A stretch of 24,659 nucleotides of DNA from a virus (taxonomy: Duplodnaviria; Caudoviricetes), in IMG/VR virus record IMGVR_UViG_3300037484_000212, positions 1 to 24,659 of that record; one strand, written 5' to 3'. Positions within the stretch are counted from its first letter, which is position 1; every line of letters starts with the position of its first letter. The position numbers were made by a program, and so were the translations under genes. The notes under the pieces were generated by a model, which made no database searches, was not told the DNA's origin, and worked only from the letters and a program-made list of their open reading frames with translations. Below, one piece after another: positions 270 to 18,683 of the stretch.

Positions 270-1548
270 TTTCAGACAACTCACCAAGGCTGTCAATCCC
301 GCTTACCGGCCTTATCTCACCGATTATCGGCCTGTCCAGATATTTAAGGGCGGTTCAGGTGCCGGCAAATCGTATTTCATCGGACAAAACAGGATATACA
401 ATACCATCGGACTTAAAGGGTTCAACGGTCTTGTAGTTCGTAAGGTGGGCCGCGACAACCATGATTCCACCTTCGCCCTCTTGTGTCGGGTTATCCGCGA
501 CATGGGCCTTGAAGAGCTTTTTGACATCAACCGCTCAAAGGGGGCCGAGGAAATCTCCTGCAAGCTCAACGACAATCAGATCATTTTTCGCGGCCTTGAT
601 GATGTGGACCAGATCAAGTCAGTGACTTTCCGCACCGGCGACCTGTCATGGGTGTGGGTGGAGGAAGCTGACCAGACCGCGATAGACGATTACCGGCAAC
701 TTACGCTCAGGCTACGCGGGAAAGACCAGCCGGTTGCGGTGATTCCGACAAAGACGCCCTTCAAGAAACATATCATCCTGTCATTCAACCCTATCGATAT
801 TTCATCATGGATAAAAACCGAGTTTTTTGACCGTCCACTTTCCAAGGAAGAAGGCTTCATTCTCGAAACCACCTATCACGATAATGAGCACTTGGACAAA
901 GAGTACATCGGCAAGCTCGAAAACCTTAAGAACATCGACTATTACTATTACCAAGTCTATGTGCTCAATCAGTGGGGGGCCAGAACTACCGCCCGTGTGT
1001 TTCACAATCTTGAAATCCACGACTTCGAGGTCAAGGAGCACGACTTTACAAACATCCGGGCCGGGGCTGACTTCGGGTTCAACCATGCGAACGCCTGGGA
1101 GCTCTCGGCCATGAAAGACGGGGAGCTGTACATCTATTCGGAGGTGTACGCGAAGAACATACTCAATAAAGTTTTCGGCGAACGGATTGCCGCAAAGCAC
1201 ATCAAGACGCGGCCTATCATCTGCGATTCGGCGGACCCGGCGTACATATCAGAATTCAACGCGCTTGGGCTTGTGGCTTATGGAGCGAAGAAGGGGCCGG
1301 GATCACTCGAACGCGGTGTGAACTGGTTGAAGTCCTTGCCGAAAATCCATATTCATGCTACAAATTGTCCTAATGCGGCCCGCGAGTTCCCTCGATTCAA
1401 ATACCGGGAACTGAAGGACGGAACGGTGACTGACGAATACGTCGAGATTGATGACGATACTATCGCCGCTGTACGATACGGCAACGAAGACCTGGCCAAC
1501 ACCCCGGCGGCTGGAGCATTCTTTGTTTTGAAACGAGGCGTCCGATGA
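256..1548 (+). CDS. terL: Terminase large subunit, PBSX family
   Basis: Walker A GGSGAGKS, Walker B WVWVEEA, coupling motif LSFNP, nuclease motifs GADFG and CDSADP. AGGAG at 244-248 precedes ATG 256, which is preferred over TTG 229. Confidence 0.95.
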   Translation: MTTVDFRQLTKAVNPAYRPYLTDYRPVQIFKGGSGAGKSYFIGQNRIYNTIGLKGFNGLVVRKVGRDNHDSTFALLCRVIRDMGLEELFDINRSKGAEEISCKLNDNQIIFRGLDDVDQIKSVTFRTGDLSWVWVEEADQTAIDDYRQLTLRLRGKDQPVAVIPTKTPFKKHIILSFNPIDISSWIKTEFFDRPLSKEEGFILETTYHDNEHLDKEYIGKLENLKNIDYYYYQVYVLNQWGARTTARVFHNLEIHDFEVKEHDFTNIRAGADFGFNHANAWELSAMKDGELYIYSEVYAKNILNKVFGERIAAKHIKTRPIICDSADPAYISEFNALGLVAYGAKKGPGSLERGVNWLKSLPKIHIHATNCPNAAREFPRFKYRELKDGTVTDEYVEIDDDTIAAVRYGNEDLANTPAAGAFFVLKRGVR

Positions 1549-3944
1549 ATCAATCAGGATTCCGACAGGTAATCGATTTACAGCGCCGCCGCATTCAGTC
1601 TATGAACGGGTTTCATCCTATCGCCCGCGCGCGCATGACCAGAAATCTACAGGCACTTGAAGAAGCCGAACGAGATATACTCAATATCGCCGTTACCGGG
1701 TTCAACGTCACTACCGGTGTTGCTGACAAGAACAACTTCCGAACCTACGCCGAACAGGTGTCCGCCGCATATGAAATGTATGAAGCTCGTGGAGATTATG
1801 GCGCGGAGTTGTTCGGGTCTGTCGTTGACATGCGGGCGTCGTTCATCGGCGGAGAAGGCATATCGGTTGTCACTAAGAACAAAGCCGCCGAGAAGTGGAC
1901 GGCCGATTTTCTCGCCGATAACAAGCTAAACGGCTCACGGCTTATCGACATCATCCTTACCGGGGAACTGGAAGGGCGCAATCTACTCACGCTTGCGATT
2001 TCCGGGAAGGACACGGGCCTTGAACGCGACAAGGGCGCGAAGTATATCGCCGTCGAGGAGGTGCTTTGGTACGCGAAACGATATCAGGTCACCGAGAATG
2101 GCCAGCGATTTGAAAAGGCGACGTATAAGAGCGAGAGCAAAGATGTGACCGTCAATCCCGGCGACTCTGCATACATCGTCCTGGGGAAGCGGCTTTGGAG
2201 CGATCACAATTCCACGCCGGGCCGGTTGCACAAGGTCATAACCGACTTTCAAAACTTCTCGCGCGCGAAGTATGACCTTCGGAATAACACGCACCTTTTC
2301 GGCAAGGTCATGCCGAATTTTAAGACGAAAGACGCCGGGGACGCGGCCGCCGTGAACAAACTTCTCTCCGAAAAAGACGGCTGGAAAATCGGCGATGCGT
2401 TTGTCGGCCCGGCTGAGTTTGGGCTCAAGGAACCGACGGGAGCCGCCGGGAAGTCCGTCGAGTCGGACGCTCTCCTCGCGCTCAAGCTCATTTCCTCGGC
2501 TTCCGGTATCCCGATGCACTGGCTCGCCTGGCCCGAACTTATGAGCAACCGCGCGACAGCCGAGAATCTTATGGAAGTAGTGAACGCCGCGACCGCGCGC
2601 GAGCGGTTGGTGTGGGAGGAAGGGCTCCGGGAGCTTATCCTCAAAGCCATGATCATGGCGGCTGAAAAGACCGGCGCGGGGAATGGGATCATCGATCCCG
2701 ATATCAAGGTCATGCTCCCGTTCACGTCCGTGGCTTTGCAGAAACAGACATCCGAAATCATGGGCGCTGACCTTGACCGGAAGTTGATAAGCAAGAAAAC
2801 ATACGTCGCCGCTGTGTATCCCGGATCGATTGACTATGAGACTGAAAAAACGATCATCGACAAGGAAGACGAAGAGGCGGCGGAAAAGTCACCGATGAAA
2901 AACGGAGCGCTTGAAGAGGCGCTCAAGAACATACGCGACGGCCAAGGCGAACTCAAACAGGGCCAACAGCAGACACAGGAGCAGATCAAGGCATTCCGTA
3001 AGCGCCTGAAGGCATGGAATCCCGAACAGCCGCGAGATGAGGCGGGAAGATTTGGAGAAGGCGGGGGTGGGGGAGGAGTAAGTAATGATAACCTTAAAAA
3101 AAAAATTAATGTATCATTAGAAGATATAAATTCGCTCGACGTTAAAGATGAAGAATCGATAAATGCTTTCGTAGATAAAATAGCAGAAAGCGAAATGAGA
3201 AAAGAATATGTAAAATTAGCAAAAGAAGATAATCCAGAAAGATTTTCAAACGGGTTTAATGAGTTCTATGAAAATAATGACTTGAATGATGATTTAGATG
3301 ATGATGAATTGTTCAGAAGTACATTGCGGGAACAATTATCAGTTGTTGAAGAAGGTAGACATTGGGGAAGTGCTGATGAAGAAAACAGAGTTGCGATATC
3401 AACGGCATTGATAAATAATGGAGGCAACTACACGCCAATAAATGAATTGGGGAATCCTGATTACAATTCACAATCTGATTATTTAAATATGGAAAATGTC
3501 ATCACCGGTATACAGATGAAAAATTATGTGAATGAACGTATCGGGAATTTCCCAAGAGAAGATTTTCCGGAAGTATATCGTGGCATGATGCTTTCCGAGA
3601 ACGATATCGAAAATATAAATAGTGGTTCTATGGCGGATATAAGATTGACCGGAGCAAGTGCCTTTACATTTCATAGAGATGTGGCGGAGCACTATACCCA
3701 AAGCGAATGGACATCAGAAAAATCATCGGGGAATGTCCCCGTACTTTTAAGAGTTGGGCGAACAGAAGATTTTGATAATAGAATTGGAATGTGGCATGAT
3801 TCATATGAAGAAACCGCAAGACCATCAAATAAAATCCCGCCATATGAAATATTAAATGGTTCTGGTAGAATGCGTATAACGGGGATACAAAAAATAAGTA
3901 GTGGCGGAAAAGATTATTATGAGATAACCGGGGTAACGCAATGA
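1545..3944 (+). CDS. Portal protein (about aa 1-480) fused to an AT-rich C-terminal extension with an ADP-ribosyltransferase-like domain
   Basis: Immediately follows TerL (ATGA overlap). Portal-like segment ISSASGIPMHWL...SNRATA. After WNPEQPRDEAGRFGEGGGGGG (W491, nt 3015) composition turns abruptly AT-rich and acidic. Motifs VYRG, SAFT and YEIL follow. Confidence 0.85.
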   Translation: MNQSGFRQVIDLQRRRIQSMNGFHPIARARMTRNLQALEEAERDILNIAVTGFNVTTGVADKNNFRTYAEQVSAAYEMYEARGDYGAELFGSVVDMRASFIGGEGISVVTKNKAAEKWTADFLADNKLNGSRLIDIILTGELEGRNLLTLAISGKDTGLERDKGAKYIAVEEVLWYAKRYQVTENGQRFEKATYKSESKDVTVNPGDSAYIVLGKRLWSDHNSTPGRLHKVITDFQNFSRAKYDLRNNTHLFGKVMPNFKTKDAGDAAAVNKLLSEKDGWKIGDAFVGPAEFGLKEPTGAAGKSVESDALLALKLISSASGIPMHWLAWPELMSNRATAENLMEVVNAATARERLVWEEGLRELILKAMIMAAEKTGAGNGIIDPDIKVMLPFTSVALQKQTSEIMGADLDRKLISKKTYVAAVYPGSIDYETEKTIIDKEDEEAAEKSPMKNGALEEALKNIRDGQGELKQGQQQTQEQIKAFRKRLKAWNPEQPRDEAGRFGEGGGGGGVSNDNLKKKINVSLEDINSLDVKDEESINAFVDKIAESEMRKEYVKLAKEDNPERFSNGFNEFYENNDLNDDLDDDELFRSTLREQLSVVEEGRHWGSADEENRVAISTALINNGGNYTPINELGNPDYNSQSDYLNMENVITGIQMKNYVNERIGNFPREDFPEVYRGMMLSENDIENINSGSMADIRLTGASAFTFHRDVAEHYTQSEWTSEKSSGNVPVLLRVGRTEDFDNRIGMWHDSYEETARPSNKIPPYEILNGSGRMRITGIQKISSGGKDYYEITGVTQ

Positions 3945-4010
3945 AAAAAAAGACAGAAATAACGATAGCCTCGATTTTAGGGACAGAAATAAATTTGGAA
4001 GGAGACACGA

Positions 4011-4181
4011 ATGGAACAGGAAAACAAGCAGGGGCAGGAAGTGCCAATCTCGACCGGGGCGATGGTCCCGGCGGGAGTGGAACTGACGCCGAAGGTAATG
4101 GCGAAGGCTAAGGCCGCAACGCTGGCGAAGCTCGCCGCGAAAGAAGAGAAACCGAAAAAGCCCGACAAGCCGAAGGAGTAA
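4011..4181 (+). CDS. Small Lys/Ala-rich hypothetical protein (56 aa; not in ORF track)
   Basis: AAGGAG at 3999-4004, then ATG 4011. Translates as MEQENKQGQEVPISTGAMVPAGVELTPKVMAKAKAATLAKLAAKEEKPKKPDKPKE*. GC-rich third positions; stop is 2 nt before the protease ATG. Confidence 0.7.
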   Translation: MEQENKQGQEVPISTGAMVPAGVELTPKVMAKAKAATLAKLAAKEEKPKKPDKPKE

Positions 4182-4183
4182 CG

Positions 4184-5356
4184 ATGCTGACGCAAGCTTT
4201 TGAGCGGATACCCGTCCGACTCCAAATGCAAGCCCTCGCCGGGTTTGACGTTCTCTTAATGGTCGATCCGGCCACGCTTGCCAAGATCAAGGAACGCGAC
4301 CCGCATCCGCTTTTGCAGGCGTATTCAATCTGTCACGAGGGAACAAGCAATCCAACAGTATTGGGCGAAGGCGCGCGGTCGATATCGTGGTTTCGCCGGG
4401 CGGTGCAGTCGATCAAAAATGTCATCGTCAAGGGCGTCAAGTTTTTTCTCGACCACAACGCTGATAATTCAACCGAGGGGCGTGAAGCACTCGGCGAGGT
4501 TGTGGCGTCTGGCGAAAAAGAGATCGAGGGGACACTTCATCATGTCGTGGTCGGTTACTTTCCGAATAAAGAGAAAGTTGCCGATCTCGACATCTGTAGC
4601 CAAGAAGCTGAATGGGATTTGGCGCAGACGGCGACCGGGTGGGTGGCGGATAAAATCGCGGCGCTCACCGGAATCGCTCTTTCCTCAAGCAAACGCGACA
4701 AACCTGCTTTTCCTGGGGCGGTGCGCCTCGGGATGGTTCAGGCGTTTGAAAATAAAATTGATGGCGGCCAGGACGGCGGCCAGACTCTTGACGAGTCAAG
4801 GAGATATCCTATGGATTTAGCACAGGCAACCTTTCCAGAACTTCTGGCCGAGATGCAAAAGCGCCAGGTGAAACCGTTACAGGTATTCACCCGCGAACAG
4901 CTCGAAGCCGACCAGCTTTTCTCGCCGACATTTGAGAAGGCCAAGGCTCACGACGAACTCAAGAAGAACGTCGATGATCTTACCGCCAAACTCACGACGG
5001 CCGAGGCAGACAAGTCGAAGCTCTCCGGAGATCTCAACGCAATGAAGCGCGCGGTCGAGTTTACCAAAGCCCCGAAAAGGCTGGGTGAACTCATGAAGGC
5101 CGCGAACTACACGGAGAAACAAGCGGCGTTCATTCTTAAACGTCTCACCGATAAGGTGGAGGACGTAACGGACGCTGGTTTGCAGAAGTTCGCGCAGGAA
5201 CAGGTTGCCATATACAACGACGTTGCAGGCGTCGGCACCGATAGCGCCACGGGTGCTTCGAGTGCCGCTTCCACTAGCGCAAGCGGACAGACCTCGAACG
5301 ATCCAAACGATCTGACGAAAAAGGTCAACAACCCTCTCTTGGAAGAGGATGTCTAA
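4184..5356 (+). CDS. Prohead maturation protease fused to scaffold domain
   Basis: Position upstream of capsid genes. Candidate catalytic His (FFLDHN) and Ser (DICSQE), plus the terminal strand LTGIALSS...KPAFPGA typical of prohead serine proteases. The C-terminal half is coiled-coil/low-complexity. Confidence 0.75.
   Translation: MLTQAFERIPVRLQMQALAGFDVLLMVDPATLAKIKERDPHPLLQAYSICHEGTSNPTVLGEGARSISWFRRAVQSIKNVIVKGVKFFLDHNADNSTEGREALGEVVASGEKEIEGTLHHVVVGYFPNKEKVADLDICSQEAEWDLAQTATGWVADKIAALTGIALSSSKRDKPAFPGAVRLGMVQAFENKIDGGQDGGQTLDESRRYPMDLAQATFPELLAEMQKRQVKPLQVFTREQLEADQLFSPTFEKAKAHDELKKNVDDLTAKLTTAEADKSKLSGDLNAMKRAVEFTKAPKRLGELMKAANYTEKQAAFILKRLTDKVEDVTDAGLQKFAQEQVAIYNDVAGVGTDSATGASSAASTSASGQTSNDPNDLTKKVNNPLLEEDV
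4811..5356 (+). CDS. Nested in-frame scaffolding protein (181 aa) from internal start
   Basis: AAGGAG at 4798-4803, 7-nt spacer, in-frame ATG 4811 (M210) right after a flexible linker. Helical, charged product. Same arrangement as lambda C/Nu3 and Mu I/Z. Confidence 0.7.
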   Translation: MDLAQATFPELLAEMQKRQVKPLQVFTREQLEADQLFSPTFEKAKAHDELKKNVDDLTAKLTTAEADKSKLSGDLNAMKRAVEFTKAPKRLGELMKAANYTEKQAAFILKRLTDKVEDVTDAGLQKFAQEQVAIYNDVAGVGTDSATGASSAASTSASGQTSNDPNDLTKKVNNPLLEEDV

Positions 5357-5765: not shown

Positions 5766-6818
5766 ATGATTACGAATAAGAATTTTTTTACCGCCAACGA
5801 CGAGCTGTTCATGAACATGCTCCTCAAAGTGGCAGAAAAGACCGCGAGCCCGGCCGAATGCTCGCAGGTCAATGTGGCCCTTCAGGCTTTCATGCAGAAA
5901 CCCAACAGGGTCATGCGTGCCAGCCTACAGGCCATGAAAAAGAGCTTGCAGGCCGTCTCCGTGTCCACTGATTTCGCGGTGCTCACTACGAACGCTTTCA
6001 ACGTCACCGTCGAGGAAGACAACTTCGATATGGGATGGGAACTGTCGTTTCAGGACGTGCCGCGTGATGGGACCTCTGATTTCTGGGAGATCGGAAACAT
6101 CAAGAACGGTATCACGTTCAAAAAGGTGCTTGAGGGAGAGCGCATCGAAGTGCTCACCATGACCGGCACCAAACAGAATATCTACGTGGACTACTACGGT
6201 GGTGCGCTTGGGTTCACCGACAAGGCGATCCGGTTCCGCAAACTGGCGCAGATGTTGGACCAGGCCCGTGCTTTCCGTAATAAGTTCTACGCGAATAAGG
6301 CTGATAATCATTATCTGTTGCTCGCTACGGCGGCGGCCCTCAATGTCATCACCTGGCAGGGCGTCGGCGGTACTCAGGTACAGCGGGACGTTGCCACGAT
6401 CAACGAGGGCGCGTTCCAGATCGGCAACGTGAACAAAGACAAGGGATATGGAGACATGGCGAATGCCGGGCTCATCCTTTACGCGAACCCGTCCGACCGT
6501 GCGCGCATCGAAGCGGCTTTCGTGCTGACCTCGAACTACCTCACGGTTGCCGCCGGTGCTATCGGCGCGAACTCGCCGGGAGCCTCTGTCACCACGCAGC
6601 CGATTCAGCGGGTCTATACGTACAACGCGAACATCGTGGCCCGTCACCCGCTTTTGGTTCTCCCGGGAAGGAAGAGCCAGAAAAACGAGGCGATGGCCCC
6701 GACCACCTTTACCCAGCCGAAAGACATCTTGACGCTGAACGAAGTACAGTCGGTGTGGAGCATCTACGGTGCTGGTATGGGCGACACCGACCAGGCCTAC
6801 GAACTGGAACTTGAATAA
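5766..6818 (+). CDS. Major capsid protein (HK97 fold, Mu gpT-like) with probable cleaved leader of about 63 aa
   Basis: Strong RBS AAGGAGG. 350 aa with STDF near the N-terminus, FKKVLEGE and YYGGALGFT motifs. Followed by an intrinsic terminator. Confidence 0.85.
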   Translation: MITNKNFFTANDELFMNMLLKVAEKTASPAECSQVNVALQAFMQKPNRVMRASLQAMKKSLQAVSVSTDFAVLTTNAFNVTVEEDNFDMGWELSFQDVPRDGTSDFWEIGNIKNGITFKKVLEGERIEVLTMTGTKQNIYVDYYGGALGFTDKAIRFRKLAQMLDQARAFRNKFYANKADNHYLLLATAAALNVITWQGVGGTQVQRDVATINEGAFQIGNVNKDKGYGDMANAGLILYANPSDRARIEAAFVLTSNYLTVAAGAIGANSPGASVTTQPIQRVYTYNANIVARHPLLVLPGRKSQKNEAMAPTTFTQPKDILTLNEVQSVWSIYGAGMGDTDQAYELELE

Positions 6819-6946: not shown

Positions 6947-7354
6947 ATGATCGTAATCGGAAATAATTCATGGGTCACTATCGCGGAGGCAAACGATTAC
7001 ATTTCCTGGCGATACGGCGCGGGCGCATGGGCCGGGCTCCCGGATACCGATAAAGAAGCACTACTCCGCACGGCTTACAACCTCTTGATGAGGCAGTCCG
7101 GCTATACCATCGCCGCGACATCGACCGCGCAGTCAGTAAAAAATGCGCAATGTGAGACGGCGTGGTTTTGGTACCAGCATGGCGAGGAGTGGGACAAGCG
7201 GTCGGCGCTCTATGCTGGCGGGGTGCGGTCATTCTCTGTTATGAGTTGGAGCGAAAGTCTCACGGCCCCAGACCTACCACCGTTCATCAAAAACATGATC
7301 AAGGATTTTTATACAAGCGGGAACTACAAGCCAACCGTATCAAGGAGTTATTGA
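6947..7354 (+). CDS. Head-tail connector/adaptor protein
   Basis: NSWVTIAEANDY...W...DKEALLRTA...VKNAQCETA pattern of adaptor proteins. AAGGAG at 6934-6939 precedes ATG 6947. The track start at 6830 runs through the terminator and tRNA-like element and is rejected. Confidence 0.8.
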   Translation: MIVIGNNSWVTIAEANDYISWRYGAGAWAGLPDTDKEALLRTAYNLLMRQSGYTIAATSTAQSVKNAQCETAWFWYQHGEEWDKRSALYAGGVRSFSVMSWSESLTAPDLPPFIKNMIKDFYTSGNYKPTVSRSY

Positions 7355-8319
7355 TGGCGCGTCTACAGTTCCGCGAAGCGGCGGGACAGGCAAAGCAGAT
7401 TTCTCAACGGCTCAGGCGGATACAAACAAAACTCGATAGGCTTGTCGCGGAAGTTGCTGGGACAAGTGAAACATCGAACACTTACTGGCTCATGACCAGG
7501 CGTGAAATGACCGCGCTCTATGAAGAGATGCGGGCCATTACAAAGAGATTTGTTACCGCACAGATTCCGGCCGCGTATGACCAATCCGTACGTGATGAAA
7601 TCGCAAAGCTCAAGGCGTCCGAGTTCACTCCGCGGACGATTCACTACAACGCCTTTTCGCGGTCGAATGTGTATGTCCAGGGCCTGGCGTCGATTCTTAA
7701 CGATACCCTCTCCGCGTTCGATCAAGGGTATCTGTCTGGGGAGGCCACGTTCAACAGGCTCATGCGGGCCACGCAACAGGTCAACCTCGCCGAGAAACAA
7801 ATCAACCAGGCGATTCAGGAAGGATACCTCGAAAGCGGATCGCCTCAGGGGACGGCAAAGAATCTACGGGAAGCGCTTTTAGAAAAATTAAAAGATGGGA
7901 AATTCGTAACCATCGTTGACAAAAACGGAGATACCCGCCAGTACACCGTGGACGCATATGCCGAGATGGTGACACGGACGAAGCTCATCGAAGCAACGAC
8001 GATGGGCGTGACTACGGCCGTGCGCGCGGCAGGGGGCGACCTTGTGCAGGTGAGCGCGCATAATACGAATTGTGAAATTTGCATGGAGTTCGAGGGGAAA
8101 ATATACAGCCTCTCAGGCGATGATCCAGACTTCCCGCCGGCGACGGAGCTTCCTGGATTTCATCCAAATTGCCGCCACACAATAGATTCAGCGTTTCGGG
8201 AAGGCATGGAAGTACAGGGGACGCTCGAAGACTTTATCGAGTTCTCGAATGGCGAAACCGAAGAGCACCCGACGCGGGATAGCTTCGTGCCGGTCTCGCA
8301 AAGAAAAGGTGAAGACTAA
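7354..8319 (+). CDS. Minor head protein (phage minor capsid 2 / MuF-related), 321 aa, no C-terminal extension
   Basis: YAEMVTRT, DLVQVSAH...CEICMEFEGKIYS and FHPNCRH motifs. TGATG overlap with the connector stop; AAGGAG at 7342-7347. Confidence 0.85.
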   Translation: MARLQFREAAGQAKQISQRLRRIQTKLDRLVAEVAGTSETSNTYWLMTRREMTALYEEMRAITKRFVTAQIPAAYDQSVRDEIAKLKASEFTPRTIHYNAFSRSNVYVQGLASILNDTLSAFDQGYLSGEATFNRLMRATQQVNLAEKQINQAIQEGYLESGSPQGTAKNLREALLEKLKDGKFVTIVDKNGDTRQYTVDAYAEMVTRTKLIEATTMGVTTAVRAAGGDLVQVSAHNTNCEICMEFEGKIYSLSGDDPDFPPATELPGFHPNCRHTIDSAFREGMEVQGTLEDFIEFSNGETEEHPTRDSFVPVSQRKGED

Positions 8320-10007
8320 TGGGCATGATTCAGCTACGCGACATCGACCTTGAAAAAGCGCGTAAAAACAAAAGCCCGGACAGGACCTGGCGGCTGTTCC
8401 AGGAGATGGGCCTTCTTGATGGATCTTCACTCAAGGATCGCAACTATTCGGGCGTTGACGGCGTGTGGGCGGGAAAGCCTGCCTACGTCATCGGGACAGG
8501 CAAAGGCCTCAAGAACACGCTCGCGGCCGTCGGCGGGTGGGAGTTCTTCCTGGGGAAACATACCATCGGGATTAACCACGCCATTGAGGATTGGGATGGA
8601 TTCGAGTGGTTCCTGTTTCTTGACGAACGGTTTATCAAACGCACGACCTACGACCTCGGCCGTTATCGCGGACTCATTTTCGCTCAGGCAACAACGGGGC
8701 TGAAGCCGAGCGGTAACGTGAAGGTGTTTTTCTGCCAGCGACGGGGGCCGAGTGAACGGCTAAAGGATGGACTTTTCAACGGGAACCTGTCTGGGCTGGC
8801 GGCGTTGAATCTCGCTATTTGCTCAGGGGCCGACCCTATCTATCTCATCGGTAACGGCGGTGACGGGGAAGCGACGGCGCAGAGTTACCACTACAAGGAA
8901 AACTATACCGCCGAGATAAAGGAACCGAAGCGGCTCAAGAAGTTTCAAAACGTGCTCAAGTACTTTGACCACTTCGCGCCCTGGGCGTCTCGGATTATCC
9001 ACGTCTCGAAAGTATCTGACATCCCGACTTTCAAGCGCATCGATCACGCAACTTTCGCGGCCAGGCACAAACTTATGCCCCGCATCGAGGCCCGAACGGC
9101 CCGGATCGTCCACCTTTCATTTTCCGGGGACATCAAGGTTCATGGAGACATCACCCGGCACGTTTTCGCCGAGTGTGTGGGCAAGCATATGATCGTCGAC
9201 GCGAGGAAAGGTATCCCCCCGGCTGACCTGTATATCGCCGAGCATTTCCTATCGACCACGCAGGCGATTAACGTTATGACTCCCGCGCAGAAAGCGAAGA
9301 CAATAAATATTGTCCATACCGTGAACGTGCTCCCGCAAGGAACATGGGGAAAGACCATCGCGCTCACCCATGCATGGAAGCGCTGGTTGCAAAAGCACCT
9401 CATCAAGGTCGACCGCGTGATCGTCCCCGGTATCGACCTTGCGCCTTATCGTGACGTGGCGCCTGACTATTCCGCTCAGGTGTTCGGCCGTATGACCCGC
9501 TGGAGCGCGTCAAAGGTGCACCCTGAATGGAACCGGGCGACACTCGAAATACTCGCAGCGGTTCCGGGAAGCCGGTGCGTCATGTTCACGGAAAAGCCGG
9601 AAGGCGGCTCGCGGCCGTTTCTGAAAAATGAGCGCGTCACTTATGACCATAGTTGCCGAATCGATATGTTCAAGGGCGACTTCCTCCGCCGATTATCGGT
9701 CTACGTTCATGCGAACGGGAGTTTCAAAGAGACGCTTTCCTTCGCCGTGATAGAGGCTATGGCGACCGGACTGCCGATTATCTATCTTGACGAAGGGACG
9801 GGGGTACTCGAAGAAGTGACCGGCGGGATAGGGATACGGTGCGCGACTATCAACGCCGCCAGGGATTCAGTGATTGACCTATTGCGCGATACCGGGAAAC
9901 GTAAAGCGCTCGGCGCAAAATGCCGGGAGTTTGCTTTTTCCCGATACGATAAAACAAGAATGGTGAGCGAGTTTAATTCGATCATCGAAGAAGAATTGAG
10001 GAGATAA
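8319..10007 (+). CDS. Two-domain glycosyltransferase: N-terminal Maf/DUF115-sialyltransferase-like domain + C-terminal GT-B (GT4-like) domain
   Basis: N-domain GKPAYVIGTGKGL...TIGINHA...FLFLD...SGLAALNLAICSGADPIYLIG. C-domain VIVPGIDL...ETLSFAVIEAMATGLPII (E-x7-E motif). TAATG overlap with the upstream gene. Confidence 0.8.
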   Translation: MGMIQLRDIDLEKARKNKSPDRTWRLFQEMGLLDGSSLKDRNYSGVDGVWAGKPAYVIGTGKGLKNTLAAVGGWEFFLGKHTIGINHAIEDWDGFEWFLFLDERFIKRTTYDLGRYRGLIFAQATTGLKPSGNVKVFFCQRRGPSERLKDGLFNGNLSGLAALNLAICSGADPIYLIGNGGDGEATAQSYHYKENYTAEIKEPKRLKKFQNVLKYFDHFAPWASRIIHVSKVSDIPTFKRIDHATFAARHKLMPRIEARTARIVHLSFSGDIKVHGDITRHVFAECVGKHMIVDARKGIPPADLYIAEHFLSTTQAINVMTPAQKAKTINIVHTVNVLPQGTWGKTIALTHAWKRWLQKHLIKVDRVIVPGIDLAPYRDVAPDYSAQVFGRMTRWSASKVHPEWNRATLEILAAVPGSRCVMFTEKPEGGSRPFLKNERVTYDHSCRIDMFKGDFLRRLSVYVHANGSFKETLSFAVIEAMATGLPIIYLDEGTGVLEEVTGGIGIRCATINAARDSVIDLLRDTGKRKALGAKCREFAFSRYDKTRMVSEFNSIIEEELRR

Positions 10008-10009
10008 AC

Positions 10010-10210
10010 ATGGGCGGAAAGGAAGCGAAACGCTACAGGAAACTATCGCGGCAAGCAATCGAGATGGGGACGCGGGCGAAGTTTGAAGTACTTGTCGGCA
10101 AGGCGAAGCGGGCGCTCCGTCGCCAGGCGGTGCTCATAGGGGCAATTATCGCGCTCACCCCTGCGAACGTATACGCGGCCTATCTGCTCATAAAGGAGAT
10201 CGTAAAATGA
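10010..10210 (+). CDS. Small basic protein with one C-terminal hydrophobic helix
   Basis: GAGGAG RBS. Fills the gap exactly; stop overlaps the neuA start (ATGA). Hydrophobic stretch AVLIGAIIALTPANVYAAYLLI. Confidence 0.65.
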   Translation: MGGKEAKRYRKLSRQAIEMGTRAKFEVLVGKAKRALRRQAVLIGAIIALTPANVYAAYLLIKEIVK

Positions 10211-10833
10211 AGATAGTCACGGTCATCCTCGCTCGCGCGGGAAGCAAACGGATACCCAAGAAGAACATCGCTTTGCTCAAAGGCGTCCCGCTCATCGAGT
10301 ACACTTTGCGGGATGCCGTGGCGCTTGGGTTCCCGGTCTACGTCTATACCGATATGCCGGAAGTCCGCGCGGTTGCGTCCACTTACCAGGTCGAAGTGAG
10401 GGGCAAGTTATTCGAGCATGCCGATGGGGTCCACGAAACCGGCAAGGAACTGGCGGAGTACAACAAAGAGCTTCAAGCAGATCATATCATTCTTTTACAA
10501 CCGACCTCGCCGCTCCGAGACGTGCCGCGCATAAAGGAATGGGTCAAGCAATATCTCGATGGCAGATACTCTGTCGGGCTGGCCGCGAAGGCTTTGAAAC
10601 CGGCATTCTACTACGACGAAGCGGGTGGCGCTCTCAACTTCTTTGACAAATATCGGGACTACAACTCGACCGGGAAAAGCATCATCTACCGGGAAACGGG
10701 ATCATTTTACATTTTCAAGGCTGACCAGATACGGGAAAACCATTTTGCCAACTCGAAGGCGCGGATCATTTTTCCAGATCCGTATGACAACGACATCGAC
10801 AACCTGAAAGAACTATTAGAGGCAGGGAAATGA
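10207..10833 (+). CDS. neuA: Acylneuraminate cytidylyltransferase (CMP-nonulosonate synthetase)
   Basis: ILARAGSKRIPKKNI, LLQPTSPLR, ETGSFYIF and DID motifs. Confidence 0.92.
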   Translation: MKIVTVILARAGSKRIPKKNIALLKGVPLIEYTLRDAVALGFPVYVYTDMPEVRAVASTYQVEVRGKLFEHADGVHETGKELAEYNKELQADHIILLQPTSPLRDVPRIKEWVKQYLDGRYSVGLAAKALKPAFYYDEAGGALNFFDKYRDYNSTGKSIIYRETGSFYIFKADQIRENHFANSKARIIFPDPYDNDIDNLKELLEAGK

Positions 10834-11126
10834 AGACGTACGTCATCGACATCGATGGAACACTTATAAAAAGCGAGCGCGTGGATTGTGGAATCTGTTT
10901 CCGCGCTCAATATAGAATAGTGAAAGTGAACAAGAAGGAAATTGAGGCCGTCAATCGACATTACGCCGAGGGAGATACGATCATACTCTGGACCGGGCGA
11001 GGGTGGGACTTGTATAAAACAACGGTAGATCAATTGCGCCGTATTGGAGTAAGATATCACGAACTTTACATGGGCAAACCGATAGGAATATACGTTGACG
11101 CAGATGCTTTAAGGAGTCTGACATGA
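10830..11126 (+). CDS. Minimal capless HAD-superfamily phosphatase
   Basis: Motif I YVIDIDGTL, motif II LWTGR, motif III/IV MGKP..IYVDAD. ATGA overlaps at both ends. Confidence 0.85.
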   Translation: MKTYVIDIDGTLIKSERVDCGICFRAQYRIVKVNKKEIEAVNRHYAEGDTIILWTGRGWDLYKTTVDQLRRIGVRYHELYMGKPIGIYVDADALRSLT

Positions 11127-11944
11127 AAGTTCGGCTCATCGAAGAAATTGGGTGCAACCATCAAGGGGACATGAAAATCGCCCGCCAGATGATCGATGAT
11201 GCGGCCCGGCTCGGCGTGTGGGCGGTGAAGTTCCAGAAGCGCGATACCGAAAGCCTTGGCGAAGCACTCCGGCTCATGCCGCGCGATCCAGCTACCAGCT
11301 TCGGCGGGAACTACTACGAACACCGAAAAGCACTTGAGTTAACGGCCGGCCAACTCGAAGACCTTTTGATTTCCGCGCATAACCTCGGGCTTGCGGCCGG
11401 GGTGTCCGTGTTCGATATGGTGTCCATCGAGGAGATGAAAAAGCTCCCATGGGACTTCATCAAGCTCCCGAGTCAGTTCTATACACACTACGCTTTCACG
11501 CGCGCGCTCATGGGCTGGAATTATTCCTTCATGGCTTCAACCGGGATGCACACCTTTGACGAAATCACCGGCTGGCAGTTTTTCGGTAAGCACGACGTGA
11601 CCATGTACTGCCGGTCCCTCTACCCGGCGACAATCGATCAAGTACGCATGGCTGAATTCAGGGCGCTCCGGGATGCGCTCAAGGGGTCGACCATCGGATA
11701 TTCAAGCCACGAAAGAGACGGGGAGGCAATCCCGATGATGGTGCTCCTCGGGGCTGAATACATCGAAAGGCACTACACTCTCGACAAAACCATGAAGGGG
11801 TCAGACCACAAAACCGTATCATCCGATTTCCGCGATATGGAAAAGATCATCGCGGCCGTCAAGCAGGTCGAGGAGTCGGAGGGCGCTGTCCAGGACATCA
11901 TCGATGCGGAGAAGAAAGTCCGCAAAGTCTACAGGGGGTTTTAG
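11123..11944 (+). CDS. neuB: N-acetylneuraminate(-9-phosphate) synthase family protein, lacking C-terminal AFP/SAF domain
   Basis: EIGCNHQGD, AVKFQKR, STGM, CRSLYP, GYSSHE and IERHYTLDKTMKGSDH motifs; 273 aa. Confidence 0.93.
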   Translation: MKVRLIEEIGCNHQGDMKIARQMIDDAARLGVWAVKFQKRDTESLGEALRLMPRDPATSFGGNYYEHRKALELTAGQLEDLLISAHNLGLAAGVSVFDMVSIEEMKKLPWDFIKLPSQFYTHYAFTRALMGWNYSFMASTGMHTFDEITGWQFFGKHDVTMYCRSLYPATIDQVRMAEFRALRDALKGSTIGYSSHERDGEAIPMMVLLGAEYIERHYTLDKTMKGSDHKTVSSDFRDMEKIIAAVKQVEESEGAVQDIIDAEKKVRKVYRGF

Positions 11945-11945
11945 C

Positions 11946-12056
11946 ATGGACGCGAGAAAGAAAGACAAAATCATGTGGAACGCCATCATCATTATCAGTG
12001 CTCTCAATATCGCGCAAACCATCTTCTTTATTGTTTTAAGAGAGGTAATGAAGTGA
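11946..12056 (+). CDS. 36-aa single-TM microprotein (not in ORF track)
   Basis: MDARKKDKIMWNAIIIISALNIAQTIFFIVLREVMK*. Starts 1 nt after the neuB stop, preceded by AGGGGG; stop overlaps the next GTG (GTGA). Confidence 0.6.
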   Translation: MDARKKDKIMWNAIIIISALNIAQTIFFIVLREVMK

Positions 12057-12583
12057 ATATACCGGAGCGGACGAAAGCAAGCATCGCCGGACTCGACGCC
12101 ATGTGCCGGTGGCTCGTGGAAAAATTAGACGGGCGCACCGATTTGATTATGGCGGAGATAGGCGTATGGACCGGGGCAGGGACTCAAGTATTCGCGAAAT
12201 ACTTCGATAAGATTTACGCTGTCGATCCATGGTCATCCGATCAACCTGAAATAGCGAGCGAGTACGACATGAAGCAGGTTGAAGCAATCTTTGACATGCG
12301 CTTTTCCATGAATGAAAAAGTCATCAAGGTCAAGCAACCATCCCCCGGAGCTGCGGCGCGCTATAAGAATGGCTTTTTCGATATGGTCTACATCGACGCC
12401 ATCCATGGATACGAAGGAGTCAAGGCGGACATCAAAGCATGGTTTCCGAAGGTACGGCTTGGCGGGTTCCTTTGTGGGCATGATTATTCGCGTAAGTTTC
12501 CGAGCGTTGTAAGGGCGGTCGATGAACTGCGCGGCGGACGGCATAAAATGTTTCCCGATACTTCCTGGGCGGTGAGAATATGA
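12053..12583 (+). CDS. Class I SAM-dependent methyltransferase (Methyltransf_24-like)
   Basis: AEIGVWTGAGT, YAVDPW and FDMVYIDAIHGYEGVKADIKAWFPKVRLGGFLCGHDY motifs. GAGGT RBS before GTG 12053. Confidence 0.88.
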   Translation: MNIPERTKASIAGLDAMCRWLVEKLDGRTDLIMAEIGVWTGAGTQVFAKYFDKIYAVDPWSSDQPEIASEYDMKQVEAIFDMRFSMNEKVIKVKQPSPGAAARYKNGFFDMVYIDAIHGYEGVKADIKAWFPKVRLGGFLCGHDYSRKFPSVVRAVDELRGGRHKMFPDTSWAVRI

Positions 12584-13188
12584 AGCGGGGAATCATAGTA
12601 TCAATCCAAGGATACCAGCCTAAAACGACCGGGGAACTGGCGAGCGAAGCAGTCAGGGCCGGGGCAATCGCGCTTCGCACGGATAAGTTGATCCGTCTGC
12701 AGGAAGGCGTCGAGCGCGTGCCTGTTATCGGGTTGCAGAAAATGCACGTCAACGCGCCAGCGCGAGAGGCGTATATCACCGTGACCATTGAGGCGGTCCA
12801 AGAGGTGGCGAAATGGGCGGATTACGTGGCGGTCGATTGCCGTACCTGCAACGTGAAGCGCATGGATATCCTCGCATGGTGCAAGGAGAACAATATCAAG
12901 GTGGTTGCCGACATCGCCACCTTCGACGATTGGGCCTCACTTCAGGGCCAAGCCTATGCGTTCGCGGCTACGACACTTTCAGTCTTTCACAAAAATCACC
13001 GGCCAGACCTGGCGCTGGTTGACCAGATTATCGAGGCTGGTGAAAAGAACATCATAGCCGAGGGGAACTATGCGACCCGTAAAGATGTGCAGACGGTACT
13101 AAAACGAGGAGCCCGATGCGTATGTATCGGGGGAGCGATCAGTAATGTGTACAAGCTGACGCGCAAATTTACAACCGTGGAGTTTTAA
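12580..13188 (+). CDS. nanE: N-acetylmannosamine-6-phosphate 2-epimerase
   Basis: GIIVSIQ, AGAIALR, PVIGLQK (catalytic Lys position), YIT, VADI, ATTLS, PDLALV, IIAEG and IGGAI occur in NanE order. Confidence 0.85.
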   Translation: MKRGIIVSIQGYQPKTTGELASEAVRAGAIALRTDKLIRLQEGVERVPVIGLQKMHVNAPAREAYITVTIEAVQEVAKWADYVAVDCRTCNVKRMDILAWCKENNIKVVADIATFDDWASLQGQAYAFAATTLSVFHKNHRPDLALVDQIIEAGEKNIIAEGNYATRKDVQTVLKRGARCVCIGGAISNVYKLTRKFTTVEF

Positions 13189-13853
13189 TGATGAAACAGA
13201 AACAACTCGCCTTTAATATGAATCGCTTTTGGAATGGAACAAACGAAAGAAACGCACACCTCGGATTGTCTGGCGAGGCGGAATATCTGATCGAACGGTG
13301 CCGCACTATCGTAGCTGAAATGGGGAGCGTGAAAAATAAAACTGTCATTGATTTCGGTCATGGCGGCGGATATATGGGCCTGGTAATACTCGAAGGCGGA
13401 GCCAAAAAATATATCGGATATGACATCGCCGAGAGATCGAACAAACGGGCGGCGGCGAATCTCGCAGAGTTTGAAAACAAAGAGCTCATCCTATTAAAAG
13501 AACACCGCTGGAACTTCGCGGAAAAAACGCCTGACATCATCGTGGCCTTGGCGGTTATTATCCATTTCCCGACCCGGCTTTATCTCGACAACTTCCTGAA
13601 GACTTGTGATGAATCCGGCGCGAAAAAACTTGTCCTCGAAATCAGAGACATGGGGCGCGGGACTGAATTACAACGCGAACCATATAGCGAATCGAGCTTC
13701 GCGCTACGACCGCGCACCTGTCTCACGTGTAACACCGATGAGAAATATGTGTCGGCGCATTTGACGAATTATGAATTGATGAAGGCGGGCGAGCGGAATG
13801 ACAACGGGTTGCAAGTCCTTTGGTTCACGAGAAAGCGAAAGGAACGCGAATGA
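13188..13853 (+). CDS. Class I SAM-dependent methyltransferase
   Basis: VIDFGHGGG, YIGYDI and DIIVALAVIIHFP motifs; TAATG overlap with nanE. Confidence 0.82.
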   Translation: MMKQKQLAFNMNRFWNGTNERNAHLGLSGEAEYLIERCRTIVAEMGSVKNKTVIDFGHGGGYMGLVILEGGAKKYIGYDIAERSNKRAAANLAEFENKELILLKEHRWNFAEKTPDIIVALAVIIHFPTRLYLDNFLKTCDESGAKKLVLEIRDMGRGTELQREPYSESSFALRPRTCLTCNTDEKYVSAHLTNYELMKAGERNDNGLQVLWFTRKRKERE

Positions 13854-16406: not shown

Positions 16407-18683
16407 ATGGCATTCGACGCTGGCAGTATCGTCGGGAAGATCAATCTTGAAACCGGCGAATTTACAGCCGCTTTAACCGGCGCAGTTGCTAAAACGAAGA
16501 GCATGACGAAGAGCATGTTTGATGCTCAAGTCGCTTTTGCCGCCGTCAAAAAAGCCATAAATCTTGTTACTGGATTCGTCAAAGACTCGATAGGCGCATG
16601 GAACGCGCAAGAGCAAGCAATCGCCATCACGCGGGCCACGCTCAAAAGTACGGGTAACGCCATTGGCATGACCGTGAAAGAACTGGTCGACCTTTCCGGT
16701 GAAGTACAAAAAAATACAACCTTCGCGGATGAGAATGTACTCGCCGCGCAGAACATGATCCTTACCTACACGAAAATAGGAAAGGACATTTTTCCGCGCA
16801 CGACGATGGCGATTGCCGATATGTCGGCGCGTATCGGGGACCTGAACGGTAATGCGCGGCTTGTCGGTCGAGCGCTTGAAGACCCGATACGTGGGCTCAC
16901 CATGCTCCAGCGCATGGGCGTAACCTTTTCGGCTTCGCAAAAAGACCAGATAGAAAACTTCGTCAAAACAAATCAACTCGGGAAGGCGCAAGCCATTATC
17001 CTCACCGAGCTTGAAAAGAAGTTCGGCGGAAGCGCGGCCGCTATCCGTAACACGTTCGGCGGGGCCGTGACAGCACTCAATAACACTTGGGGCGACTTTC
17101 AGGAAAACATCGGACAGTATGCGGCGGCCGTAGGCAGACCGCTTGTCGAGAATCTTAATCAGATAGTCGGCGCTATCAATAAATGGCTTACCTCAACGGA
17201 GGGGATGGAAACAATCTCCGATATTCTCTCGAATGTCGCGGCGGCTTTTGAGACTATAAAAATGGTTGCCCAGCCCATTGTTGACGCCATCGGACCGGCG
17301 CTTGCTGAGATCATTGAGCAGATAAAGAAGTCTTTCGCCGATATCGTAGGGCCGGGGAACGAAGCACACGCCATTTTCACCGCTCTCGCTGTCGTTGGAA
17401 AAGTTCTTGCTCTTGTTATAACTGTGATAGCGAAAGTCATCCAGTTTACCATCCAGACGACCGGGAATTTAATCAAAGCCTTTATAATGACCGCCGATGT
17501 TATCGGTAAAATGGTCGATGTGTGGGCACATCTTGGAGACCCGAAATATGCCAAGGCGTTCCTCACGGCCGCCCAGAGCGCGGGGAAGGCATGGGAGACT
17601 TTTGTCGTCGATCAATATAAAGGGGTCGAGGATATAATCAAGGTCGGCGTACTTGGAGTCGTAGACATTTTCAAGACGGCCGATTCTGAAGGCGCGAAGC
17701 TCGAAGCGGCATTTAAAAAAACACAGGAAACACGCAAAAAAGAAATCAAAGATTATCTCAGCGGGACGACCGAAGAATCCGCCAGGCAGATGACAAAACT
17801 GCTTGCCAACGGGGAGGACACCGGCCGCAAGCTCACCGACATCGAGAAGGATTGGGCGGAAGCACGGAAGACCATCGGCGAAAACGAGCTACAGACAAAA
17901 ATCAGACAACTTAAGGATCAAGCAGACAAGTATCGGGAAGTGGCGAAAGACAAGTCTGAAGTTGATAAATGGGTTGCCGCAGAAAGCGAGAAAGCCGCTG
18001 GCAAGACAAAGACGGCATGGGAAAAGGCCGTTGATGATATTACGACCGTATTTGGGCAAGTACAAAACGTCGCTACACAGGTTTGGGGACAGATTAGCGC
18101 GATATGGACCCAGGCGCTGGATAATGAAATGCAAGCGCTTGATAATGATTATGAAAAACGTAAAGCAAACATCGAGGCGAACGTAACCGACGAGGAGGAC
18201 CGGGCCGCACAGCTGGCAGCCCTTGACGAGGAGTACGCCGCCAAGAAACGTGAGATAGAGAAACAACAGTGGATCGCACAGCAGGCCGCGGCGGTTACGC
18301 AGGCGATCATGAACACCGCCACGGGCGTGGCCTCCGCTATCGGCATGGCCTGGCTCTGGCCTTTCAACTTCGTGCTTGCCGGGATCATCGGCGCGTTGGG
18401 AGCCGTGCAGGTTGGCCTTATCGCTAGCCAGCCCATGCCGGCGTTCGCCAGTGGTGGTCTTGCCCAGCCAGGTCTTGCACTGGTAGGTGAGCGCGGCCCT
18501 GAGGTCGTGCAGTTTGAAAGAAGCGCACGGGTATACTCGAATGAAGATAGCCGCGCGATGTTCGGCGGCTCTGGGCCACAGATGAATAACTATTTTGGTG
18601 ACGTCCATAACGATACCGACACCGATCGGGCCAGCGCCATCATCGCGGCGCAATATCGGGCGATGTTGAGGGGGGCCGCATGA
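16407..18683 (+). CDS. Tape measure protein
   Basis: 758 aa, helical and Ala-rich, with GRALEDPIRGLTMLQRMGV, ILTELEKKFGGSA and C-terminal PAFASGG...LVGERGPE motifs. Confidence 0.92.
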   Translation: MAFDAGSIVGKINLETGEFTAALTGAVAKTKSMTKSMFDAQVAFAAVKKAINLVTGFVKDSIGAWNAQEQAIAITRATLKSTGNAIGMTVKELVDLSGEVQKNTTFADENVLAAQNMILTYTKIGKDIFPRTTMAIADMSARIGDLNGNARLVGRALEDPIRGLTMLQRMGVTFSASQKDQIENFVKTNQLGKAQAIILTELEKKFGGSAAAIRNTFGGAVTALNNTWGDFQENIGQYAAAVGRPLVENLNQIVGAINKWLTSTEGMETISDILSNVAAAFETIKMVAQPIVDAIGPALAEIIEQIKKSFADIVGPGNEAHAIFTALAVVGKVLALVITVIAKVIQFTIQTTGNLIKAFIMTADVIGKMVDVWAHLGDPKYAKAFLTAAQSAGKAWETFVVDQYKGVEDIIKVGVLGVVDIFKTADSEGAKLEAAFKKTQETRKKEIKDYLSGTTEESARQMTKLLANGEDTGRKLTDIEKDWAEARKTIGENELQTKIRQLKDQADKYREVAKDKSEVDKWVAAESEKAAGKTKTAWEKAVDDITTVFGQVQNVATQVWGQISAIWTQALDNEMQALDNDYEKRKANIEANVTDEEDRAAQLAALDEEYAAKKREIEKQQWIAQQAAAVTQAIMNTATGVASAIGMAWLWPFNFVLAGIIGALGAVQVGLIASQPMPAFASGGLAQPGLALVGERGPEVVQFERSARVYSNEDSRAMFGGSGPQMNNYFGDVHNDTDTDRASAIIAAQYRAMLRGAA

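Follow-up and report, generated by a model that had tools for sequence, protein, structure and literature searches.

A phage portal protein with a tagged C-terminal extension predicted to adopt an ADP-ribosyltransferase fold

The IMG/VR virus record IMGVR_UViG_3300037484_000212 (Caudoviricetes; positions 1 to 24,659, hereafter the window) contains an open reading frame (ORF), 1545-3944, in which a portal protein continues into a 309-aa C-terminal extension. The ORF is a single stop-free frame of 799 aa, and the fusion is real. The extension begins with a short tag, WNPEQPRDEAGRF (aa 491-503, nt 3015-3053), and a glycine run that ends at aa 511 (nt 3077), followed by what we call the cargo, an acidic spacer and a domain with a predicted ADP-ribosyltransferase (ART) fold. 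The record is linear, 24.7 kb long and 32% complete, and its gene content is that of a terminase-to-tail module. We infer that the cargo is cut from the portal, retained in the head, ejected and catalytically active; the 12 copies per head, injection and host modification suggested at first have the same standing. In the course that we propose, the 799-aa protein would form the portal ring, its tail lying within the prohead, and the phage head protease would cut at phi-K-A sites just before the tag. The freed 35-kDa cargo, with the tag retained at its start, would leave with the DNA on ejection and, early in infection, transfer ADP-ribose from NAD+ to a host target; the cargo gene was probably acquired by recombination, either at the tag or immediately behind it. 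We give the whole chain, from portal loading through protease release and ejection to ADP-ribosylation, slightly less than an even chance of being correct.

Pfam gave no name for the N-terminal part of the ORF. When the portal core was modeled with AlphaFold2 (AF2) from 95 sequences (pLDDT 87.5), a structure search with VIA returned the portals of Chi (Z 20.1), lambda (Z 19.9) and SPP1 (Z 18.1) at root-mean-square deviations (rmsd) of 5-6, and among the best 50 matches listed all were portal or neck entries. The predicted model has the wing-stem-clip-crown fold of portals, and the gene lies between the terminase and the protease and capsid genes, as portal genes of tailed phages do. The fold matches thus bear out the initial annotation of this stretch, which had called the extended protein a portal. 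Portals form a dodecameric ring at one vertex of the capsid, with the C-terminus facing the capsid interior. T4 gp20 is described as such a dodecameric portal ring (PMC9026906; this and the other papers cited are represented here by parts of their text).

Among related portals the extension is confined to this protein. Relatives were sought among proteins of 439-1399 aa, and all 112 portal relatives (449-559 aa) lacked both an extension and the tag. A scan of 169 sequences (168 loci and the window) yielded 124 distinct closed portal ends; the 123 other than that of the window all close at 582 aa or less, and none is extended. The expectation that related portals would swap C-termini after PRDxxGRF failed in the same two sets (0/112 proteins, 0/123 locus ends). 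Mobility here is that of tagged modules between carrier proteins, not of tails among portals.

The cargo differs in composition from the portal that carries it. GC content is 0.552 over aa 1-490 (0.68 at third codon positions, GC3, in the portal core), 0.63 over the tag and glycine run, and 0.353 in the cargo (GC3 0.27), with a computed change point at nt 3077-3079 that coincides with the end of the glycine run. The low-GC stretch ends at about 4000-4028, and the lowest GC of any 860-nt segment elsewhere in the window is 0.459. An abrupt fall at about nt 3077 after the tag and glycine run, with low GC up to about 4000, had been described from hand counts of 18/60 in line 3121 and 41/60 in line 2401; the counts are correct on recount, and the break just past the tag supports the foreign origin suggested for the cargo. 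The cargo frame contains 0 stops compared with 9-39 in the five other frames, and 286 stop-free codons at the cargo's composition have a chance probability of 1e-11. A stop or misassembly near 3015-3080, raised as a possible flaw, is contradicted by a contig from run X1 that spans nt 2800-3126 without a gap, with at least 49 nt on each side of the junction. Its 8 substitutions all lie at 2837-2912 and produce one amino-acid change and no stop. Because X1 is possibly the source sample, we treat this contig as a second assembly, not a second population. In run X2 the fraction of words present was only 0.15, and the contig from it ends at 3034, short of the junction; the best-matching run is labelled as a sediment metagenome. 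We found no flanking repeat marking a cargo insertion and no strong in-frame internal start near the junction.

Several comparisons place the cargo domain among ARTs. Residues 640-799 fell with the ADPrib_exo_Tox clusters of the Atlas (0.97), where the model had a template-modeling (TM) score of 0.71. Against a profile built from 17 phage ARTs the cargo reached 22.4 bits, and the best of 2000 shuffles 8.3. A cargo model built from an 18-row ART alignment (pLDDT 70.6) matched Vis best in VIA (Z 12.7, rmsd 2.7, 150 aligned residues), and the top 23 rows were all ART folds, although this search is partly circular because the model was folded on an ART alignment. Further matches included chain 6drh_B (Z 10.7) and HopU1 (Z 10.4), and DNA-modifying and other ART rows had Z below 5; identity within the top 23 rows was 11-18%, with one row at 8%. 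A profile of the cargo's own family (described below), compared with the 17-phage-ART profile and with the window sequence left out of both, gave a probability of 93.3 (E value 2.7e-7). The domain is thus predicted to have an ART fold of the ARTC branch, with a split beta-sheet. The Atlas TM score, the VIA match and the profile comparison agree with the ART-like C-terminal domain first suggested for this protein, including the structure check proposed for aa 640-799. The acidic part reported ahead of VYRG (nt 3573-3584, which correctly correspond to aa 677-680) is likewise present, with 29 D/E and 14 K/R in aa 514-625. This spacer had no Atlas match above 0.85, and some cargo homologs align into it.

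The cargo belongs to a family that went undetected in most searches. Pfam, PHROGs and NCBIfam contained no matching family, PDB sequences gave nothing below an E value of 0.49, and neither tblastn against INPHARED phages nor single-sequence locus scans produced a match. Word-index searches of proteins of 157-501 aa and 502-2000 aa also returned no homologs; a full HMMER search then recovered 67 other clusters with 26-41% identity, so the earlier blanks reflect the sensitivity limit of the word index. In the 61 of 67 homologs scanned with Pfam, the ART-family domain had no match. Partner domains in these 61 included InPase (7/61), NUDIX, LPD1 and PAPS reductase. MuF-type N-termini were present in 6 of 48 homologs scanned, and 34 of the 67 exceed 600 aa; the family thus occurs in MuF and polyvalent phage proteins. 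Genome-collection matches (9, at 23-41% identity, scattered over unrelated bins) indicated no phage host. Other short common header-like motifs, starting with P-x-G-[TS] and ending with G-K/Q-W, were seen in four homologs (P0122, P0123, P0157 and P0121).

Alignment of the family revealed a conserved but unusual active site. The strand-1 arginine R679 (Y-R-G) is present in 64/65 members and 17/17 phage ARTs, and E768, at the position of the catalytic glutamate, in 64/66 and 17/17. T702 and G703 (65/66 each) lie in the motif LTG-x-[ST]-A706-F-[ST], in which A706 occupies the column of the triad serine in a register taken from alignments, not coordinates; this column is Ala in 60/65 family members and Ser in 16/17 phage ARTs. 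Position 766, two before E768, is proline in the window and Ala in 49, Pro in 9 and Gly in 5 of 66 members, giving a final motif P-[AP]-[FY]-E768 with Ala or Pro at 766 in 58/66. Also conserved are an N-terminal HWG at 606-608 (H606 55/62, W 60/62, G 59/62), Y717 (62/65), R739 and D744 (64/65 each) and H751 (57/65). Measured against published ART motif definitions, E/Q-x-E among them (PMC8120803), the R-S-E order read from this DNA at first holds for R679 and E768 and fails for its serine: the Ser of ASAFT (S705) lies off the triad column, and the site reads R-A-E. The P-x-E noted in place of E/Q-x-E is accurate for the window (P-Y-E) and extends to A/P-F/Y-E across the family. The missing triad serine and the missing E/Q are common to the cargo family and are therefore family features. 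We had considered decay as the source of the odd active site and dropped this idea once the 67-cluster family showed the same residues. As the family lacks the acceptor-selecting E/Q while its other residues are conserved, the acceptor is probably not arginine. The window matches 26 of 30 conserved family columns, and 14 of the 67 other members depart at more than 4. Among strain differences in the ART domain, 5 of 7 listed are synonymous compared with a neutral 21% (P 0.006), in variant contigs of depth below 5 and with about 3 end differences unlisted (5/10 would give P 0.04).

In the phage family to which the window belongs, tagged cargo modules occur on portal, MuF, protease and stand-alone genes. 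In L081, the closest relative (57% identity in the portal), the tag and an ART form a separate gene just before the protease, and in L006 they are appended to MuF. L015 contains five tandem tagged stand-alone genes between portal and protease (L015:4855-7654), two of them standard R-S-E ARTs and three unassigned basic proteins. In L164 a variant of the tag and its cargo, which has an HExxH motif, are nested within the protease gene between phi-Q-S sites (L164:1024-3018). L005 and L010 have a second header, GGPGSG, behind phi-Q-A-type sites on the protease. In L005 an ART lies at the protease end and the scaffold is a separate gene (L005:12164-13543); in L010 an acidic cargo without assignment separates protease from scaffold and has sites on either side (L010:11637-13442). 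In total, 5 ART domains were found, spread over 4 of the 123 distinct loci; only 61 of these 123 extend at least 6 kb past the portal. GC drops just past the header in L006 (0.65 to 0.30), L081 (0.61 to 0.45) and L005 (0.47 to 0.37). The small gene between portal and protease follows the cargo in the window and precedes the tagged ART in L081, and this difference in order indicates that the cassette entered at different positions.

The tag extends well beyond this phage family. The DNA pattern [DNH]QPRD[DE]xGR[FW], applied to 23 of 64 parts of the collection, detected it in 136 viral loci (about 350 estimated overall) with 132 distinct instances; a stricter DNA pattern gave 0 matches, and PHROG 38358 matches the tag alone, weakly (E value 0.043). 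We scanned 55 tagged proteins from the first 80 loci, excluding short and scaffold-like ones. A portal domain precedes the tag in 15 of these 55, and two loci (L208 and L248) encode portal-tag-ART proteins. Other cargos include topoisomerase IB, Zeta-like kinase, papain-fold deamidase, PBECR3, pesticin, Acb1 and 2H phosphoesterases. GC3 is lower past the tag in 23 of 33 cases (P 0.011; the rows are not independent). The PRDxxGRF-Gly segment had been proposed as the recombination or loading junction; it is indeed a module boundary with a composition break just behind it, only not one between portals. The tag is probably a landing pad on the recipient side, with cargo captured at or just behind it; that none of the 67 cargo homologs has the QPRD tag or is a portal of this family fits such capture behind a recipient-supplied tag. 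The tag most likely aids retention or sorting of the released cargo, in the head or as it is ejected.

The aromatic residue three places before the motif is absent in 36 of 132 tag instances. Many of these 36 lie near the N-terminus of acidic, Ala/Glu/Pro-rich, scaffold-looking proteins of 250-400 aa (L172, L173, L176, L183, L184, L188 and similar), two of which were searched and had no PHROG match; the tag may derive from a scaffold motif.

The putative processing enzyme is the likely prohead protease-scaffold encoded downstream of the small gene. This protein has no Pfam or PDB sequence match, so we named it by its position and by H91 and S139, which are invariant in 51/51 aligned sequences; Q186 is nearly invariant at the end of the domain. 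Counted on related, non-independent sequences, the motif phi-Q-[AS] is more frequent than in shuffled sequences for the protease (239 vs 51), the capsid (213 vs 66) and the portal (162 vs 82). MuF shows weak enrichment (53 vs 40), whereas terminase (5 vs 13), tail tube (3 vs 9) and adaptor (19 vs 20) show none. A prohead-protease site would be expected to be enriched in head proteins in this way, if it resembles the L/I-x-E motif cleaved in T4, where Alt is also ejected (PMC9026906). The major capsid protein has phi-Q-A sites at aa 39-41 and 61-63, with Gln conserved in 59/76 and 69/76 relatives. For comparison with the linker ahead of the window's tag, 4 of 122 relatives terminate in phi-Q-[AS]-[FW] followed by a basic tail.

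Within the phage family, 9 of 12 tag or header junctions follow phi-Q-[ASG], and L010 and L164 have inserted cargo with such sites on both sides. Outside it, phi-Q-[ASG] lies upstream of 1 of 96 tags and Lys or Arg just before the aromatic residue in 56 of 96, which indicates that the residue in front of the tag varies with the phage group. Of 15 relatives with a match, 5 have phi-K-[AS], Lys in place of Gln, at a homologous pre-protease site; portal position 36 is Lys in 7 of 94. Cleavage at the window's phi-K-A sites is plausible by these comparisons. Neither these candidate sites nor the cargo's own conserved family had been recognized in the initial annotation. Separately, the motif of the head proteins recurs as phi-Q-A at three places close to the C-terminus of the tape measure protein (window 16407-18683; aa 568, 575 and 631).

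Besides the circularity of the fold search, the relatedness of the sequences in the motif counts and the shallow variant contigs, several points weigh against the proposed chain. Both candidate sites before the window's tag, IKAF and LKAW, have Lys, and the window's other head-protein sites have Gln. At the best-conserved sites such Lys is rare (1/76 at each capsid site, 0/99 at protease 186), and phi-Q-A is likewise missing ahead of the tag at the other two exceptions among the 12 junctions, L051 and the closest relative L081. The portal-tag-cargo fusion is a singleton in its own portal family. None of the 67 cargo homologs carries the QPRD tag, which suggests that the tag is dispensable for this cargo type. 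Finally, two usual ARTC motif positions are non-standard in the cargo, and the window departs at 4 of the 30 conserved columns, including V662, a column that is Ala in 63/63 members.

A possible but unlikely alternative keeps the same delivery and changes the chemistry: the cargo might hydrolyze or cyclize NAD+, or act on an ADP-ribose-type small molecule or nucleic acid, and thereby blunt a nucleotide-signalling defence of the host. Throughout the family the E/Q acceptor residue and the first STS serine are missing and H606, R739, D744 and H751 are conserved in addition, as this alternative would lead one to expect. Homologs alongside InPase, NUDIX and PAPS-reductase domains, and Acb1 and 2H phosphoesterases among the other tag cargos, point the same way. 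The nearest folds are protein-modifying ARTC members, however, and the DNA-modifying and other ART rows scored below a Z of 5.

We consider it improbable that the cargo is never cut and instead remains on the portal in the capsid or acts late in the producing cell, for example by shielding the packaging machine from host sensors. Lys at both pre-tag sites would fit this; protection of portal or terminase has been raised as an alternative role of head-linked ARTs (PMC9503650), and T4 tolerates engineered C-terminal portal fusions (PMC9026906). Yet IKAF lies at a site homologous to the candidate site in relatives, Lys is tolerated at portal position 36 as given above, and twelve folded 35-kDa domains on the crown would be expected to crowd the DNA path. 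Somewhat more improbable still is a weakened or non-catalytic passenger, either a recent accidental fusion of a tagged cassette or a decoy that binds NAD+ or protein. The singleton status of the fusion, the separate tagged ART gene downstream of the portal in L081 and the departure at the otherwise invariant A662 column are consistent with a passenger. Against it stand the 286 low-GC codons that remain open, the mostly synonymous strain differences and the agreement at conserved columns, as well as the recurrence of portal-tag-cargo among tagged proteins.

It is very unlikely that the cargo is a polymorphic toxin of the MuF type, killing non-lysogens and neutralized by a downstream immunity protein. 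Variable C-terminal cargo on head proteins is typical of such toxins, 14% of MuF toxins being putative ARTs (PMC5576092), and a 56-aa ORF (3941-4111) starts at the cargo stop codon. This ORF overlaps the conserved small gene in another frame, though, and is probably spurious. We found no clear immunity gene past the cargo in the window; in L081, L005 and L015 another head or cargo gene follows the ART gene directly, leaving no room for one. Lysogeny is not evident in the 32%-complete record, and the window's MuF has no extension, the carrier being the portal. An assembly chimera at nt 3015-3080, suggested by the abrupt GC step and by the single record in the protein database that holds this portal fusion, is largely refuted by the bridging X1 contig and by the same post-tag GC step in L006, L081 and L005.

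The portal-ART architecture that underlies the preferred chain of loading, release and ejection is already published. Iyer et al. (2022, PMC9503650) state that ARTs are found fused to portal proteins or others associated with the head, PBECR and 2H domains have been described on portals (Iyer et al. 2017, PMC5512222), and MuF-ART fusions are known (Jamet et al. 2017, PMC5576092; PMC7302621). The cargo family and the tag were not found in print; most subscription papers were outside the search, as were the Iyer supplements and FTP files, which may list the domain. Like the portal and MuF effectors and polyvalent proteins of PMC5512222 and PMC9503650, the present protein has a predicted enzyme domain on a head protein, with packaging and injection proposed, and homologs of the cargo occur with InPase, LPD1 and MuF. 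Unlike those effectors, the cargo is by motif neither an Alt/VIP2 R-S-E nor an H-Y-D polyvalent ART, and a tag behind a head-protease site is not mentioned for them in the cited sections.

T4 Alt (PMC9026906, PMC8120803) is an ARTC-fold head protein, with prohead-protease cleavage at a short motif and ejection with the DNA, as is proposed for the cargo. In contrast to the cargo, Alt is a separate protein with R-S-E, and the T4 site is L/I-x-E where the candidate here is phi-Q/K-A. The T4 capsid targeting sequence is cleaved off, whereas the window's tag, behind the candidate site, would remain on the cargo. MuF toxins (PMC5576092) and the MuF-VIP2 fusions of Microbacterium phages (PMC7302621) share a variable enzymatic C-terminal extension on a head protein in only some relatives; the window differs from MuF toxins in its portal carrier, its short MuF, the lack of a convincing immunity gene and the non-standard active site. 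Compared with ARTC members (cholera-toxin-like, VIP2/C3/Vis), the cargo shares the predicted fold, strand-1 Arg and final Glu and differs in the family-wide Ala at the triad-Ser column, the A/P-F/Y-E at the ARTT loop and the additional N-terminal HWG.

Head-fused effectors have long been predicted, and this phage family allows a clean test of how they are freed and ejected: a single candidate protease motif and a single tag accompany cargos on four different carriers, two of which have sites on each flank. The cargo family, with a predicted ART fold and a rebuilt active site, could reveal new NAD+ chemistry or an anti-defence activity, and a working tag, if real, would offer simple protein loading into phage heads. 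Tentatively, and with considerable doubt, we suggest that the cargo may be the first member noticed of a distinct ART-fold class with R-A-E plus HWG, R, D and H that directs new NAD+ chemistry against host defence, and that a phage-specific protease site followed by a portable QPRDxxGRF peptide may be a general plug-in by which any head protein could load, release and eject any enzyme. Coordinates of the features are given in Table 1.

Table 1. Features of the portal-cargo gene and its neighbors in the window
Feature	Position (nt)	Strand	Basis
Portal core, aa 1 to ~465	1545..2939	+	AF2 model, portal fold matches, 112 homologs
Gln-rich helical linker with candidate head-protease sites IKAF (aa 481-484) and LKA|W (aa 488-491)	2940..3014	+	Sequence; cleavage inferred
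Tag WNPEQPRDEAGRF and Gly linker, aa 491-511	3015..3077	+	GC 0.63, the phage's own GC; tag common to L006, L015 and L081
Acidic helical spacer of cargo, aa 512 to ~600	3078..3344	+	Residue counts
Predicted ART-fold domain, unannotated family, aa ~600-799	3345..3944	+	67 clusters, fold and profile matches
Small gene between portal and protease	4011..4181	+	Look-alike in L081; GC back to 0.59
Likely prohead protease-scaffold gene	4184..5356	+	Invariant residues, gene position
Major capsid protein	5766..6818	+	PF25209, E value 1.2e-6
MuF gene, no cargo here	7162..8319	+	PF06152, E value 2e-16

Two observations concern the MuF gene and its neighborhood. In L027, L029, L031 and L064, MuF genes encode 590-664 aa with an interrupted match to the window's MuF and normal C-termini, and that of L027 looks intein-like. 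Between the MuF and head-closure genes of the window (8319-13853) lies a nonulosonic (sialic-like) acid cluster, comprising a glycosyltransferase with an alpha-2,3-sialyltransferase-like part, a cytidylyltransferase, a HAD phosphatase, NeuB, NanE and two methyltransferases. The cluster possibly serves virion glycosylation, and apparently similar nonulosonic genes are located at the same place in L006.

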